DNA of 64,000 nucleotides. Source: Clostridia bacterium. Lineage in GTDB: Bacteria > Bacillota > Clostridia > Christensenellales > Borkfalkiaceae. The position numbers were made by a program, and so were the translations under genes. Under the pieces are notes generated by a model. That model did not search any database. It saw only the letters and a program-made list of their open reading frames with translations, and was not told where the DNA came from. Below are positions 1-62,124 of the stretch, in pieces (positions within the stretch are counted from its first letter, which is position 1; the number at the start of each line of letters is the position of its first letter). Location of the stretch: contig JAFQWV010000027.1 of NCBI GenBank assembly GCA_017407325.1, positions 31,623 to 95,622 on the forward strand, given 5' to 3'.

Positions 1-23
1 TTTGTCAATAGTTTTTATTATAA

Positions 24-115
24 TGCAAGCGCACGCTTGCAATTTATGAACGCCTGCGTTCAATTTATGACGGCGAAGTCGTCAATTTATGCAACGCAAG
101 TTGCAATTTATTTTT
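24..115 (+). repeat. word-plus-hairpin array (word AATTTATG/ATTTA, 4 hairpins) abutting the glnS stop codon
   Basis: TGCAAGCGcaCGCTTGCA ATTTA TGAACGCctGCGTTCA ATTTA TGACGGCgaaGTCGTCA ATTTA TGCAACgcaaGTTGCA ATTTATTTTTT. The four stems are all different and the linker is constant. Words start at 41, 62, 84 and 105. Confidence 0.85.
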
Positions 116-1730
116 TAAAGCTGTCTTTTAGAGATACGATTTCGGAAAGAATAATCTTTTCGCCGTCAACCATTTTCTTATAATATCCCGTTCTAAGCAT
201 TTGGAAGCAACTGCCCGTCTCAACGCTGTCGATATATTTTTCGCAAACGCCTTGATAAATAGTACGGCTGTTTTCGTTAATACGTTCTGAAAAATCTTGA
301 CCTTGATATTCGGCGTCTTTTAAAAGGTAATCGTACTTACGAATTTCGCAAGGAACGAAGCTTTCTGCGCTTACCCAGTGAATAGTACCTTTACATTTAA
401 CGCCTGAAGTGTCGTTACCGCTTTTTGAATTTTCAACGATTGAAACGTGAACTTCTTTAACGCTACCGTCGTCGTTTAATACGGCGTTTTCGTACTTGAC
501 GATATACGCGCCTTTAAGTCTGACTACGCCGTCAGGTTTAAGGCGGAAATATTTTGGCGGTGGGTTTAAAGAAAAGTCGCTTTGTTCGATATAAATTTCT
601 TTGGTAAAGAGTACGTTTCTCTTGCCAAGTTCCGGTTTATTAGGGTTAATCTCGACTTCAACTTCTTCGCTAGCATCAAAATTGTCGATAACGACTTTGA
701 GTGGTTCAACGACAGCCATAGCGCGTTCTGCGTTTTGGTTTAAGTTGTCGCGAATAAAGTGTTCAAGATAGGAAATTTCAATTTCAGAGTTAGATTTTGC
801 AACGCCAATTTCGTCGCAGAACTTTTTGAGTGCGTCGCTTGGCACACCGCGATTTCTAAGTCCCGTCAAAGTCGGCATACGTGGATCTGACCAGCCGTCA
901 ACTGAACTTTCTTCAACGAGTTTTTTAAGGTAACGCTTACTCATAACTAAGTTAGTAACGTTAAGTCTAGCAAACTCGATTTGGCGAGGTTTATGTTCAA
1001 CGCCCGTATTTTCAACCGTCCAGTTATAAAGCGGGCGGTGGTCTTCAAACTCTAAAGTGCAGAGAGAGTGCGTAACCTTTTGCATAGAGTCGCAGATAGG
1101 ATGAGCAAAGTCGTACATAGGATAGATGCACCACTTATTTCCCGTACGGTGATGTTCTGCGTGTAAAACGCGATAAATTACAGGGTCGCGCATGTTAATA
1201 TTAGGCGACTTCATATCTATCTTAGCGCGCAAAACCTTTTCGCCGTCAGCGTACTTGCCGTCGCGCATTTCTCTAAAGAGTTTAAGGTTTTCTTCAACCG
1301 TTCTGTTTCTGTACGGACTTTCCTTACCGGGTTCTGTAAGCGTTCCGCGAAGGGCGCGAATTTCGTCACCCGACAAATCGCAAACGAACGCCTTGCCGTC
1401 TAAAATAAGTTTTTCTGCTAAAGAGTAAATTACGTCAAAATAGTCTGACGCATAGTGAATTTCAGCCCACTCAAAGCCGAGCCATTTGATATCTTCTTTG
1501 ATAGCGTCAACGTACTCGGTCTTTTCTTTTGATGGGTTGGTGTCGTCAAAGAAAAGATTACACTTTCCCCCGAACTTTTTAGCAACGCCAAAATTTAGGC
1601 ATAAACTTTTAGCGTGTCCGATATGCAAATAGCCGTTAGGCTCTGGTGGAAAACGCGTTTGTACTGCGCTTACCTTCCCTTCTGAAAGTTCTTTTTCAAT
1701 AATTTCTTCAATAAAGTTTTCGCAAATCAT
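108..1730 (-). CDS. glnS: glutamine--tRNA ligase
   Basis: 540-aa ORF. Class I motifs PEPNGYLHIGHAKS (HIGH) and LVMSKR (VMSKR form of KMSKS, as in GlnRS). Long C-terminal beta-barrel anticodon-binding part. Confidence 0.93.
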   Translation of the reverse strand: MICENFIEEIIEKELSEGKVSAVQTRFPPEPNGYLHIGHAKSLCLNFGVAKKFGGKCNLFFDDTNPSKEKTEYVDAIKEDIKWLGFEWAEIHYASDYFDVIYSLAEKLILDGKAFVCDLSGDEIRALRGTLTEPGKESPYRNRTVEENLKLFREMRDGKYADGEKVLRAKIDMKSPNINMRDPVIYRVLHAEHHRTGNKWCIYPMYDFAHPICDSMQKVTHSLCTLEFEDHRPLYNWTVENTGVEHKPRQIEFARLNVTNLVMSKRYLKKLVEESSVDGWSDPRMPTLTGLRNRGVPSDALKKFCDEIGVAKSNSEIEISYLEHFIRDNLNQNAERAMAVVEPLKVVIDNFDASEEVEVEINPNKPELGKRNVLFTKEIYIEQSDFSLNPPPKYFRLKPDGVVRLKGAYIVKYENAVLNDDGSVKEVHVSIVENSKSGNDTSGVKCKGTIHWVSAESFVPCEIRKYDYLLKDAEYQGQDFSERINENSRTIYQGVCEKYIDSVETGSCFQMLRTGYYKKMVDGEKIILSEIVSLKDSFKK

Positions 1731-18374: not shown

Positions 18375-20141
18375 ATGTCTAAAGTAAATATTAAAATTGA
18401 AGGCATACCTTTCGAGGTAGAAGCCGGTCAAACGATTTTAGAAGCAGCCAAGGCTTGCGGTTTTGAAATCCCTTCGCTTTGCGCTTTTAATCACGGAGAA
18501 TGTTCAAAAGGCTCCTGCCGTGTTTGTCTTGTTGAAGCAACCGGCGCTAGAGGCTTAGTTGCATCTTGCGTATACCCTGTTAGCGAAGGTATGGAAATTA
18601 CTATTTCTTCACCAAAAGCTACTGCTGCAAGAAGATCTTCTGTTGAACTTTTATTATCTAATCACAACAAAAACTGCCAACAATGTGAAAAGAACGGCAA
18701 ATGCGAGCTTTTACACGTTGCTAAAATAACCGGTGCTAGAGACGATATGTATCAAGGTGCACAAACACCTACTACTCTCGACCGTCTTACCCCTTCTATC
18801 GTCAGAGATACGTCTAAATGTATCCTTTGCGGTAGATGTGTTGAAAGATGTAAAAACGCACACGGCTTAGGTATTTTAGGCTTTGAAAAGCGTGGTTTCA
18901 ACACTATCGTTTCCCCTGCTGAAAACAGAAGCTTTGCTAACTCTCCTTGTATCCTTTGCGGTCAATGCGTAAGCGTTTGTCCAACGGGTGCTTTAATGGA
19001 AGTTTCTGAAATCGAAAAAGTTGATGCAGCATTTAAAGCCGGTAAATACGTAGTAGTTCAAACTGCCCCTGCAGTAAGAGCTGCGCTCGGCGAAGAATTC
19101 GATATGCCTATCGGCTCGCTCGTTACAGGTAAAATGGTTTCTGCCCTAAAGCGCCTTGGCTTTAAGAAGGTATTTGATACTAACTTTGCAGCAGACCTTA
19201 CTATTATGGAAGAAGCAACCGAACTTCTTGACAGAATCAATAACGGTGGCGTTCTCCCTATGATTACTTCTTGTTCTCCAGGCTGGGTAAACTACGCTGA
19301 AATTAACTACGGCGAACTTTTACCACACCTTTCAAGCTGTAAGTCACCACACGAAATGTTCGGTGCTATCTTGAAAAATTACTACGCTGAAAAGAACGGT
19401 ATTAAGCCTGAAGATATGTTCGTCGTTTCTATCATGCCTTGTACTGCTAAAAAGTACGAAAAAGATAGACCAGAGCTTTCTGTAAACGGTCTTAAGGACG
19501 TTGACGCTGTTTTAACTACGAGAGAGCTTGGTAAACTCATCAAGCGTTCTGGTATCAACTTTACTAAACTTTCTGACTCTGAATTTGACAACGATATCGT
19601 TGGCGAATATTCAGGTGCAGGCGTAATCTTCGGAACGACCGGTGGCGTTATGGAAGCGGCTCTTCGTACTGCTGCGTACACCCTAACAGGTAAAGAACTT
19701 GAAAAAGTTGAGCTTACCGAAGTTCGCGGTTTCGAAGGTATCAAAGAAGCATCTTACAACTTAGCAGGAAAAGAAGTTAGAATCGCAGTTGCTCACGGTA
19801 TGAAAAATGCTAAAGTTTTACTTGACCAAATTAAAGACGGCACAAGCAAATATCACTTTATTGAAATTATGGGCTGTCCGGGTGGCTGTATCGCAGGTGG
19901 CGGACAACCGTACGTAAAACCTTGCTTCTTGCCAAACGAAGGCGCTGATATTTTAGATACTTACAAGCAAAAGAGAGCAAGCGCGCTTTATTCTGAAGAC
20001 GAATCAAAACAAATCAGAGTTTCTCACAAGAACCCACAAATTATTGACCTTTATAAAAACTTCCTTGGAAAGCCAAACTCTCACAAGGCTCACGAGCTTC
20101 TTCACACTACTTACGTAAAGAGAGAAAAGTTCACGAAGTAA
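18375..20141 (+). CDS. hydA: [FeFe] hydrogenase catalytic subunit (M3-type, trimeric/bifurcating-type context)
   Basis: 588 aa. N-terminal 2Fe-2S, HNKNCQQCEKNGKC and two 4Fe-4S ferredoxin motifs. H-cluster motifs MPCTAKK and EIMGCPGGCIAGGGQP are canonical, but motif L1 reads TSCSPGW (19266-19286). Confidence 0.92.
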   Translation: MSKVNIKIEGIPFEVEAGQTILEAAKACGFEIPSLCAFNHGECSKGSCRVCLVEATGARGLVASCVYPVSEGMEITISSPKATAARRSSVELLLSNHNKNCQQCEKNGKCELLHVAKITGARDDMYQGAQTPTTLDRLTPSIVRDTSKCILCGRCVERCKNAHGLGILGFEKRGFNTIVSPAENRSFANSPCILCGQCVSVCPTGALMEVSEIEKVDAAFKAGKYVVVQTAPAVRAALGEEFDMPIGSLVTGKMVSALKRLGFKKVFDTNFAADLTIMEEATELLDRINNGGVLPMITSCSPGWVNYAEINYGELLPHLSSCKSPHEMFGAILKNYYAEKNGIKPEDMFVVSIMPCTAKKYEKDRPELSVNGLKDVDAVLTTRELGKLIKRSGINFTKLSDSEFDNDIVGEYSGAGVIFGTTGGVMEAALRTAAYTLTGKELEKVELTEVRGFEGIKEASYNLAGKEVRIAVAHGMKNAKVLLDQIKDGTSKYHFIEIMGCPGGCIAGGGQPYVKPCFLPNEGADILDTYKQKRASALYSEDESKQIRVSHKNPQIIDLYKNFLGKPNSHKAHELLHTTYVKREKFTK

Positions 20142-33971: not shown

Positions 33972-34110
33972 TGCAGAGTAGGATTACCGCGTTAAGTGTT
34001 GCAAAACGGGATGTTGTTTGCAAACGAAAGACGTTGTCTGCGATGGTTGTCCGCGTCCGTTGCAAATAAGCAATCAGGTTCTCTACTTTTGTAGAGAATT
34101 TTTTGCTTTT
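33972..34110 (+). ncRNA. THF (tetrahydrofolate) riboswitch with terminator expression platform
   Basis: GCAGAGUAGGAUUACCGCGUUAAGUGUUGCAAAACGGGAUGUUGUUUGCAAACGAAAG... matches the conserved AGAGUAG / CGCGUUAAGUGU / GGGAUGU / AACGAA blocks of the folT-motif aptamer as I remember them. It is followed by TTCTCTACttttGTAGAGAATTTTTTGCTTTTT, directly upstream of folT. Confidence 0.85.
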
Positions 34111-60419: not shown

Positions 60420-60528
60420 ATATGTACTCCTTTTCGGAAAAAGCCTTTTTTTGTTCTACTTTCCCCGACAACGGATTATTCCCGTATTTTACGCGCAAAA
60501 GCACGCGATAAATATTATAATATATAAT

Positions 60529-60557
60529 ATATTAACAAAACGCGACAAAATTGTCAA
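60529..60557 (-). promoter_or_regulatory. sigma-A-type promoter of the giant gene
   Basis: Minus strand reads TTGACA (60552-60557), 17-nt spacer, TAATAT (60529-60534); about 100-nt leader. Confidence 0.65.
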
Positions 60558-60632
60558 TAATATTATAAAAACTTGTAGCAGGTTGCAAGAAATTTTCCAC
60601 TTCATATAAAGCACATTGCACAAGAAAACAAA

Positions 60633-60727
60633 ATAAATTGCAAAATAAATTTTGCATAAATTGACGGCGTTTGCCGTCATAAATTGACCGCTAACTGCGT
60701 TCATAAATTGCAACCCAAGTTGCATTA
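60633..60727 (-). repeat. word-plus-hairpin array, word CAATTTAT (reverse orientation, 4 units)
   Basis: The plus strand reads ATAAATTG GCAAAATaaATTTTGC ATAAATTG GACGGCgtttGCCGTC ATAAATTG GACCGCtaactGCGTTC ATAAATTG GCAACccaaGTTGC. As written, the terminal G of each word and the first G of the next hairpin are the same base. Confidence 0.85.
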
Positions 60728-60765
60728 TGGTTATTTTTTCATTGCGAGCGTTACTTCTATTTATT

Positions 60766-60948
60766 CCTACCCCGTCATTGCGAGCGCGATTTATCGCGCG
60801 TGGCAATCTCTAAAGAACTAACCGAGCACTTTTAACGCCGAACACTAAAACAACCCACACGCACTTTATAGATTCTTACGCTTTCGCTCAGAATGACACT
60901 AATGAGTGTTGTAAAATAATTAGACGGCGTTTAAAAAAAACGCACGAC
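60766..60948 (+). repeat. 184-bp structured/MITE-like element, copy 1
   Basis: Starts CCTACCCCGTCATTGCGAGCGCGATTTATCGCGCGTGGCAATCTCTAAAG and ends AGACGGCGTTTAAAAAAAACGCACGAC. Contains internal long-range inverted repeats. Confidence 0.85.
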
Positions 60949-60954
60949 AATAAT

Positions 60955-61078
60955 GCAAATCGTGATTTGCAATTTATGAAAGTTTTAACTTTCAATTTAT
61001 GCGCCTAAAGCGCAATTTATGAACTTTGCAAAAGTTCAATTTATCGCAGTTTTTGCGAATAAAATTCGCAAAAACTGC
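60955..61078 (+). repeat. word-plus-hairpin array, word AATTTATG(A) (5 hairpins)
   Basis: GCAAATCgtGATTTGC, GAAAGTTttAACTTTC, GCGCctaaaGCGC, GAACTTTgcaAAAGTTC and a 15-bp stem GCAGTTTTTGCGAATaaaATTCGCAAAAACTGC. Words are at 60971, 60994, 61014 and 61038. Confidence 0.88.
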
Positions 61079-61169
61079 CCTATAACGCGATTATTGCACC
61101 ATTTTTTCCCCCTAGCCTTTCCCTTGAGGGGAAGGTGTCGCCCCGCGACGGATGAGGTGTAAGATTGTT

Positions 61170-61310
61170 AATGATGTGCAAAATAAATTTTGCATGATGC
61201 GCTAACTTGTCAGTTAGCATGAAGCGCAATCCTACTTTTTGCGCACGGATTACATGATGTGTAAGTATGCAAGCAACTTACATTGTGGTCGTGAACGCTA
61301 GCACGTTCCG
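61170..61310 (+). repeat. word-plus-hairpin array, word CATGATG/CATGAAG
   Basis: TGCAAAATaaATTTTGCA (same hairpin as at 60639-60656), GCTAACttgtcaGTTAGC, GCGCAA..TTGCGC, TGTAAGT..ACTTACA and GAACGctagcaCGTTC. Confidence 0.8.
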
Positions 61311-61390
61311 TGAATAACATATATTTTAATTTCGGACTGAAATTATTATATAAATCGTTTTTTGTCATTGCAGCGCGATTTTTATTTACT

Positions 61391-61574
61391 CCTACCCCGT
61401 CATTGCGAGCGCGATTTATCGCGCGTGGCAATCTCTAAAGAACTAACCGAGCACTTTTAACACCCGAACACTAAAATAACCCACAACGCACTTTAGAGAT
61501 TCTTACGCTTTCGCTCAGAATGACAATATTCAGTATTATAAAATAATTAGACGGCGTTTAAAAAAACGCACGAC
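61391..61574 (+). repeat. 184-bp structured/MITE-like element, copy 2
   Basis: Near-identical to 60766-60948 and 61707-61890. Confidence 0.88.
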
Positions 61575-61580
61575 CACAAT

Positions 61581-61672
61581 GCAAATCTGAGATTTGCAAA
61601 TCATGAAAGCCTGCTTTCAAATCACGAACGGCTTGCCGTTCAAATCATGAAGGCTCAGCCTTCAAATCATCC
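61581..61672 (+). repeat. word-plus-hairpin array, word AAATCATGA (4 units)
   Basis: GCAAATCtgaGATTTGC, GAAAGCctGCTTTC, GAACGGCttGCCGTTC and GAAGGCtcaGCCTTC. Words are at 61598, 61619, 61642 and 61664. Confidence 0.88.
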
Positions 61673-61706
61673 TCTAAGGCAACATATCGAGCGCGATTTT
61701 TTTACT

Positions 61707-61890
61707 CCTACCCCGTCATTGCGAGCGCGATTTATCGCGCGTGGCAATCTCTAAAGAACTAACCGCGCACTTTTAACACCCGAACGTAAAAACAACCCAC
61801 AACGCACTTTAGAGATTCTTACGCTACCGCTCAGAATGACAGTATTCAGTATTATAAAATAATTAGACGGCGTTTAAAAAAACGCACGAC
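61707..61890 (+). repeat. 184-bp structured/MITE-like element, copy 3
   Basis: Near-identical to copies 1 and 2. The word CATATCGAG is present both before it (61683-61691) and after it. Confidence 0.88.
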
Positions 61891-61896
61891 CTTTAT

Positions 61897-62004
61897 GAAA
61901 GTTAAAAACTTGCTATCGAGCAACCGTTAGGTTGCATATCGAGTTGCTCCAGCAACATATCGAGCGCGAACAAAGTTCGCGCATATCGAGTAGCCTTTAA
62001 GCTG
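61897..62004 (+). repeat. word-plus-hairpin array, word CATATCGAG (4-5 units)
   Basis: AAGTTaaaAACTT, CAACCgttaGGTTG, TTGCtccaGCAA, CGCGAACaaaGTTCGCG and TAGCctttaaGCTG. Words are at 61912, 61935, 61956 and 61982. Confidence 0.88.
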
Positions 62005-62080
62005 CCCAATACTGCCGTACGGTTACTAGCGTCAAAAATTGCCAAATTTCAGGCGATTTTATGCTTTTTGGTCGAGTATT

Positions 62081-62124
62081 CAAAAAAGGCGCGAATTTGC
62101 CAAATAACGGCAAATTCGCGCCTT
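62081..62124 (-). terminator. second terminator-like hairpin downstream of the mini-ORF
   Basis: 16-bp stem AAGGCGCGAATTTGCC / GGCAAATTCGCGCCTT, followed by a T-run on the minus strand. Confidence 0.6.

Follow-up and report, generated by a model that had tools for sequence, protein, structure and literature searches.

The array of four small hairpins that lies directly behind glnS in the Clostridia genome analyzed here is best explained as a solo arm of a dispersed, modular and rapidly turning over intergenic repeat of the Gut-1 superfamily, which was acquired recently; we give this reading a probability of about 0.7. The repeat consists of small hairpins threaded on a constant word of 7 to 9 nt, and a complete element comprises two arms, with the word inverted between them (GATGAWTTG ... 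CAAWTYATC), flanking a short center that in at least one full-length relative holds a small gene for an Avd/IVP-like four-helix-bundle protein (PF05635/TIGR02436). The glnS copy would have arisen after the split from the sister species, when an element inserted between the glnS stop codon and the promoter of the next gene, in a stretch rich in A and T, and the site would then have been remodelled through recombination at shared words, by arm swapping and deletion, into a single arm without a gene. The glnS array is a new word variant of a kind of repeat that is known but unexplained.

The window referred to throughout is the whole stretch of DNA that was analyzed, 64,000 nt in length. The genome to which it belongs (G000) comprises 1.59 Mb in 28 contigs and is 95% complete.

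Organization of the array downstream of glnS

The features of the array, and those of the related elements in the window, are collected in Table 1. An earlier note, made by inspection of the window, had described four hairpins joined by ATTTA, and direct reading bore this out, with near-perfect stems within positions 24 to 105. Given that TG...CA flanks every stem and ATTTA joins neighboring hairpins, the constant word of the array is CAATTTATG. This word occurs 11 times in the window versus 1.09 expected, a count reached by none of 100 shuffles, and it also heads the distant array at 60954 to 61044, which the note had correctly taken to share it. Folding of the plus strand yielded exactly the four hairpins (−31.7 kcal/mol, z = −3.1), with none of 200 shuffles being as good; this better-folding strand is antisense to glnS, in agreement with the polarity that had been proposed.

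Table 1. Coordinates of the glnS array and of related features in the window
Feature	Position	Strand	Description
Segment absent from the sister species (G003)	18..107	+	~90 bp replacing the 9 nt AAAGAAAAC (alignment of own, G003 and G019 spacers)
Hairpin 1	24..41	+	TGCAAGC-GCAC-GCTTGCA; CAAGC-type stem, loop GCAC
Hairpin 2	47..62	+	TGAACG/CGTTCA; AACGC/GCGTT stem, seen in 13/14 A-type arms
Hairpin 3	68..84	+	TGACGGC/GTCGTCA; ACGGC/GTCGT stem, one G-T pair
Hairpin 4	90..105	+	TGCAAC-GCAA-GTTGCA; loop GCAA
Word CAATTTATG, copies 1, 2 and 3	40..48, 61..69, 83..91	+	
Terminal word CAATTTAT (104-111) and T-run (TTTTTT)	104..116	+	Holds the glnS stop codon, 108-110 (minus)
glnS, glutamine--tRNA ligase, 540 aa	108..1730	−	TIGR00440, 681 bits versus cutoff of 426
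A-type arm, CAATTTATG family	60633..60727	−	Left arm of a two-armed element in the window
Hairpin plus CGACAATAATG junction	60925..60953		Ahead of the B-type arm; also present behind the IVP gene in the G003 element that bears it
B-type arm, CAATTTATG family	60954..61044	+	Array cited in the earlier note

The choice of hairpins is not arbitrary. The stems CAAC(C), AACGC, ACGGC and CAAGC/CAAAAT recur across 14 aligned copies, and the glnS array corresponds to such an A-type arm with its first and last stems swapped. The description of the four hairpins as different from one another thus stood as far as their stems are concerned, but they are not unrelated, since they form the usual A-type set, in which the stems are conserved and the loops vary. 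The single G-T pair of hairpin 3 on the plus strand becomes an A-C mismatch on the glnS-sense strand.

That the array abuts the end of glnS proved right as well, the stop codon (108-110) lying inside the last word, behind which comes TTTTTT. As the promoter of the following gene lies at the left edge of the window, the array fills the space that separates the glnS stop codon from the next promoter. The gene downstream, which lies beyond the left end of the window and shares the strand of glnS, encodes a membrane-like protein of 204 aa with no Pfam match, and its identification as CvpA was not supported on that account. Its promoter is a perfect TTGACA-17-TATAAT on the minus strand (G000:C19:31565-31640 plus window positions 1 to 20), and promoter and gene are conserved together throughout the genus.

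Several identities for the array were considered and discarded. Phased binding sites on double-stranded DNA were rejected because the words are spaced by 20 to 23 bp here but by 21 to 38 bp in other word families, and a small open reading frame (ORF) across the array was rejected because the unit lengths of 21, 22 and 22 nt break the frame. No Rfam family could be assigned, the only match in positions 1 to 400 being a chance hit to psRNA6 (E = 0.53), and a phage or plasmid origin was rejected, blastn giving no match in collections of either kind. Elsewhere in the window, a tetrahydrofolate (THF) riboswitch aptamer was found on the plus strand at 33972 to 34064 (Rfam RF01831, 75.9 bits).

The glnS site in relatives

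The corresponding site is empty in the relatives. In the sister species (G003), whose GlnS is 99% identical and whose flanking regions are about 93% identical, the end of glnS reads TAG-TTTTCTTTAAAAC-TATTGACA, with 20 nt between the stop codon and the same promoter and no hairpin. Likewise, in G019 (GlnS 84% identical) about 20 nt separate glnS from the TTGACA-17-TATAAT promoter, and 20 further congeners showed unrelated spacers after glnS, the array being absent. The earlier note had reckoned with relatives that carry only one of the hairpins; the outcome was more extreme, as the relatives carry none.

A pattern of three words gave 31 matches in the genome of the window and 8 in G003, whereas none was found in 21 other species of the genus or in a sample of 300 genomes from across the order. 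In a scan across GTDB, true hairpin-word arrays with CAATTTATG were found only in metagenome-assembled genomes of Christensenellaceae and other Clostridia, the remaining CAATTTATG matches being ordinary tandem repeats. Taken together, the empty site in relatives and the restricted distribution of the three-word pattern indicate that the glnS array is a young, lineage-specific gain.

Turnover was also observed at sites where both sister species carry an element. At three orthologous sites, CAATTTATG elements of the genome of the window stood opposite elements of the CAAATCATG type in G003, and the boundaries coincided; part of the center was common to both, while the words and most of the hairpins differed. 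In one case the last hairpin had been kept and the words flanking it had changed. Separately, an orthologous arm shared by the two genomes (G000:C13:18516-18588 and G003:C18:24385-24460) has one loop reverse-complemented (ACGGC-AAA-GCCGT versus ACGGC-TTT-GCCGT) and another stem lengthened through a compensatory A...T insertion. Some of the variability of the loops may be due to flip-flop of this kind.

Strain variation at the glnS site and spread of the arms

Contigs from other samples encoding an identical GlnS of 540 aa were used for comparison among strains. At least four fillings of the glnS site were found. The first is the solo arm of the window; the second differs from it by an additional TAA at the junction. 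The third is a full element, about 370 bp long, with two arms and CATGAAATG/CATTTCATG words, and the fourth is a hybrid that starts as the CATGAAATG/CATTTCATG element and, two hairpins in, switches to CATGATTTG units. All four have the right junction (T/A)ATAAAAACTATTGACA in common, in keeping with a single ancestral insertion that later underwent arm swapping and deletion. Contigs L169, L175 and L177 carry the two-arm or hybrid fillings at the fixed glnS junction, a case of allelic replacement within the species. With identical GlnS, at least four fillings in one species and an empty site in the sister, the glnS site constitutes a clean natural experiment on an orphan class of elements.

No clean target-site duplication was apparent at the glnS site. 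A TAAA duplication is possible when the second allele is compared with the empty site, the junctions having been altered since.

A copying event was observed at another locus. In one strain (L186, a variant of G000:C20:40200-40400), an A-type arm had been copied about 650 bp away into the next intergenic spacer, carrying along 14 nt of the end of the gene that flanks the source and being joined at a TTGCTTTA microhomology. This flank-carrying copy suggests that one way in which arms spread is by ectopic recombination or template switching, and it looks like the product of one of these processes rather than of transposition. We infer that the arm behind glnS is a non-autonomous relic, of a repeat that would spread by recombination or template switching and not by means of a classical transposase. 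The explicit transposase search covered the Y1 family, and no autonomous transposase partner was found.

A dispersed repeat family with two-arm elements

The proposal that the array belongs to a dispersed family was confirmed genome-wide, with 80 copies of CAATTTATG in 45 clusters, forming about 20 arrays. A general scan returned at least 128 hairpin-word arrays, all of them intergenic and adjoining protein or tRNA genes, in which six word families were recognized (CAATTTATG, CAAATCATG, CTCGATATG, GTGAAAT, GTGAAGT and CATGAAATG). Two types of full arm exist for CAATTTATG, the A type described above and a B type with stems CAAAAAC, AAAGTT, CGC and AAAAC; in CAATTTATG arms, stems and words are conserved and loops are variable.

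Conservation of the pairing was evident from the 14 A-type arms, in which 99.2% of the pair cells were paired, compared to 17 to 38% in slid controls. Compensatory double changes affected 16 cells versus a shuffle mean of 5.0, and none of 500 shuffles reached 16.

When two arrays lay close together, they were arranged head to head in 20 of 32 pairs. The resulting two-arm elements end in GATGAWTTG ... CAAWTYATC, with the words inverted between the arms, and have a center of about 100 bp, in which an A/T-rich stretch accompanies the hairpins GTCGNGAACGC..GCGTTCCG and CAGTTTTT..AAAAACTG. Folding of a whole element yielded eight local hairpins, with the terminal words pairing as a closing stem (z = −8.3). 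A long stem of the kind found in 23S rRNA intervening sequences (IVS), formed by pairing of words across the arms, was discarded because the minimum-energy fold pairs the terminal words only. For its part, the glnS copy is a single arm, the second inverted end being absent.

In the window, GTCATTGCGAGCG...CGCGTGGCAATCTC repeats at 60730 to 60900 and 61350 to 61440 fill the center of the two-arm CAATTTATG element. This center is the place that the gene occupies in the gene-bearing relative, and the same repeats interrupt an element at G000:C15:44300-44500.

Covariance searches with the Gut-1 model (RF01706) related these elements to a known motif, using the Rfam gathering score of 50 bits as the threshold for membership. 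The model recognizes GTGAAAT arrays and matched 41 places in the genome of the window, 7 of them above the gathering score; the matched arrays serve as arms in composite elements of the kind described here, and some of them have a CAATTTATG arm as their partner. No match was obtained in positions 1 to 400 or 60500 to 62100 at an E value of 10 or lower, and none in the whole window at the gathering score. Within the genus, 12 of 23 genomes gave a match above the cutoff.

Association with PF05635 genes

The genome of the window contains three PF05635 (23S_rRNA_IVP) genes (G000:C17:51535-52278, C15:50301-51000 and C27:25563-26450), each directly preceded by a hairpin-word array built on one word of its own (ATTTCAC/GTGAAAT; GATGAAGTC/GACTTCATC; TATGTAAT/ATTACATAC). 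The C27 copy is placed after a tRNA gene and its terminator. In the genus as a whole, 29 such genes were found in 13 of 23 genomes. A word array lay within 330 nt upstream of 17 of 28 PF05635 genes by an automated criterion, and of about 25 of 28 by eye, against a background of 7.2% for all genes of the genome of the window; these counts come from related genomes that are not independent, although the word types concerned number at least ten.

One full-length relative bears the gene between its arms. The two-arm CAAATCATG-family element of G003:C11 (L166, 17487-20801), located at about 18800 to 19470 of the contig directly after the stop codon of the upstream gene, consists, in order, of a left CATGATTTG arm, a center hairpin, an ORF of 117 aa, a hairpin plus CGACCATAATG, and a right CAAATCATG arm. 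The encoded protein was recognized as a TIGR02436 'four helix bundle protein' (91.7 bits), and its match to PDB 2RLD, an entry with five chains, was at 4e-22. In the genome of the window, copies of about 250 bp that lack the gene look like internal-deletion derivatives of this gene-bearing form. No PF05635 gene of the genus was accompanied by the CAATTTATG word, and the three of the genome of the window are not of the F1 or F2 word type. A PF05635 gene between CATAAATTG/CAATTTATG arms would be the missing master copy of the CAATTTATG word family. The numbers of PF05635 genes and of Gut-1 matches per genome were only loosely correlated, G021 having no genes and eight arrays. No enzymatic or mobilizing activity is known for PF05635 proteins.

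PF05635 proteins form pentamers of four-helix bundles, are homologous to Avd, a protein of diversity-generating retroelements (DGR), and are encoded in selfish 23S rRNA intervening sequences; their function is undescribed in the literature (PMC4990558, PMC10053308, PMC3936711). In the Coxiella IVS, heptamer repeats lie just upstream of the ORF (PMC4990558). A tentative reading, which we consider possible but doubtful as a whole, is that hairpin-word arrays, Gut-1 included, serve as cis binding platforms for pentameric Avd/IVP-like PF05635 proteins. Each arm would present the five subunits of the ring with about five single-stranded copies of the word, which hairpins keep apart, and each protein paralogue would have a word of its own. 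Protein and arms would together make up a small selfish element, a non-ribosomal cousin of the 23S rRNA intervening sequences, and gene-less arms such as that behind glnS would be scattered through the 3' ends of genes. If true, this would provide a first function for an orphan RNA motif and for a widespread orphan protein family. The gene-bearing form and the arrays upstream of most PF05635 genes of the genus tie the Gut-1 motif to the IVP/Avd-like family in a way that can be tested.

Alternative explanations for the glnS array

An array that is, or is part of, a small non-coding RNA antisense to glnS, similar to Gut-1 and ending at hairpin 4 and its U-run, with single-stranded words that would bind a protein or another RNA, is an unlikely alternative to a recently acquired repeat arm. 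Several properties of the plus strand speak for such an RNA: it folds into exactly the four hairpins, and it holds the sole terminator-like site in positions 1 to 400, namely, hairpin 4 followed by ATTTATTTTT. In the A-type arms, moreover, all seven one-sided stem changes are G-U on the plus strand and none is A-C, and CAATTTATG arrays show a slight preference for folding in the plus sense (better in 8 versus 3, p = 0.04). Gut-1 itself is considered a probable non-coding RNA by Weinberg et al. (2010, Genome Biol 11:R31, PMC2864571). However, the plus strand upstream of the array contains no promoter-like site, the TATAAT at 19 to 24 abutting the first stem and lacking a −35 box, and promoter scans of the glnS arm and of full elements showed nothing enriched over shuffles. 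The glnS copy is, in addition, dispensable, and it has no Rfam match.

The strand preference also varies by word family, the counts of G-T versus A-C giving answers as mixed as those of the folding asymmetry. Gut-1 arrays favored the Rfam sense in 17 of 17 cases, and word families besides Gut-1 and CAATTTATG showed no significant preference. Given these mixed signals, the claim of a strand bias is limited to the A-type arms. Their 7:0 G-U bias, together with the better fold of the plus strand, hints at a strand-specific function, be it in RNA or in single-stranded DNA, which a purely neutral relic could do without; such a role of the arm is possible, if unproven.

A functional 3' end module of glnS, in which four hairpins in the 3' untranslated region would terminate transcription or shield the mRNA against 3' exonucleases and be under selection, appears quite improbable. 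The position of the array is suggestive, as it begins within the stop codon and lies ahead of the promoter of the next gene, and further copies lie 17 to 65 nt from the stop codons of neighboring genes. REP/BIME elements stabilize upstream mRNA, and by analogy these hairpins might do the same. Nonetheless, the array is absent from the sister species and from all congeners examined, and in strains with identical GlnS other elements take its place.

The glnS-sense strand does not behave as this explanation would require either. An intrinsic terminator of glnS would be expected to show a G+C-rich hairpin followed by a U-run on the sense strand and to be conserved in relatives. In positions 1 to 400, no hairpin followed by a U-run was found on that strand, the last hairpin being followed by AUUAUAAUAAAAAC; the four-hairpin fold was not the minimum-energy structure (z = −1.3), hairpin 3 carries its A-C mismatch, and the site is empty in relatives. 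The suggestion that the array sits in place of the glnS terminator is therefore not supported, given a site that is empty in relatives, is refilled among strains and lacks a sense-strand hairpin with U-run. In view of the folding of the sense strand, the absence of a U-run, the mismatch in hairpin 3 and the family-dependent strand asymmetry, a role for glnS is regarded as incidental. Any effect on the gene, such as 3' hairpins protecting the end of the mRNA or blocking antisense read-in, would probably be a by-product of the insertion. As the array is dispensable and recent, its annotation as a conserved terminator or regulator of glnS would not be justified, and it is of little importance for glnS itself.

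A REP/BIME or REPIN element mobilized by a RAYT (IS200-like Y1) transposase, which would account for dispersed intergenic palindromes with linker motifs at gene ends and for their mosaic organization, is largely refuted and very improbable, since searches with positive controls gave no PF01797 (Y1 transposase) match in this 95% complete genome, and since the hairpins of an arm differ and follow one another in direct order instead of repeating one unit in alternating orientation.

Comparison with known systems

The preferred reading, that of a solo arm of a modular repeat, places the glnS array beside several known kinds of element. As with the BIME/REP (REPIN) elements of enterobacteria and pseudomonads, the copies are intergenic, located at gene 3' ends and variable among strains, and they combine palindromic units with short linker motifs in mosaic clusters. 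Unlike those elements, they carry different hairpins in direct order within a cluster, joined by a constant linker, and no RAYT gene is present.

Miniature inverted-repeat transposable elements (MITEs) and the pneumococcal BOX elements resemble the gene-less derivatives of about 250 bp in their inverted ends, their modular and mosaic structure and their presence/absence polymorphism. The present elements differ in that the only gene-bearing relative found here encodes a four-helix-bundle protein and not a transposase, that target-site duplication is not clear, and that at least one copying event looks like flank-carrying recombination.

Parallels exist also with the PF05635-encoding intervening sequences of 23S rRNA in Coxiella burnetii (PMC4990558) and Leptospira. 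The element of G003:C11 has complementary termini around its ORF, the terminal words of the two-arm element pair as a closing stem, and tandem heptamer repeats directly upstream of the ORF are found in the Coxiella IVS as well. In contrast to these sequences, however, the present elements are not located in rRNA, their arrays following the stop codons of protein genes and terminators, and their termini are arrays of words and hairpins rather than one long stem. An ORF within such termini was found in G003:C11 alone, the glnS copy having no ORF and one arm only.

A further likeness is to Gut-1, which was presented as a non-coding RNA standing on its own and found in gut metagenomes only (PMC2864571). 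Both consist of three to four small hairpins parted by one constant short word, which in Gut-1 is GUGAAAU, whereas the word and the stems of the glnS array differ from those of Gut-1 and the covariance model does not reach it. In the genomes studied here, Gut-1 behaves as an arm of a strain-variable repeat and not as the stand-alone RNA described, and what are taken for 'RNA genes' of the Gut-1 type may for the most part be repeat-DNA arms.
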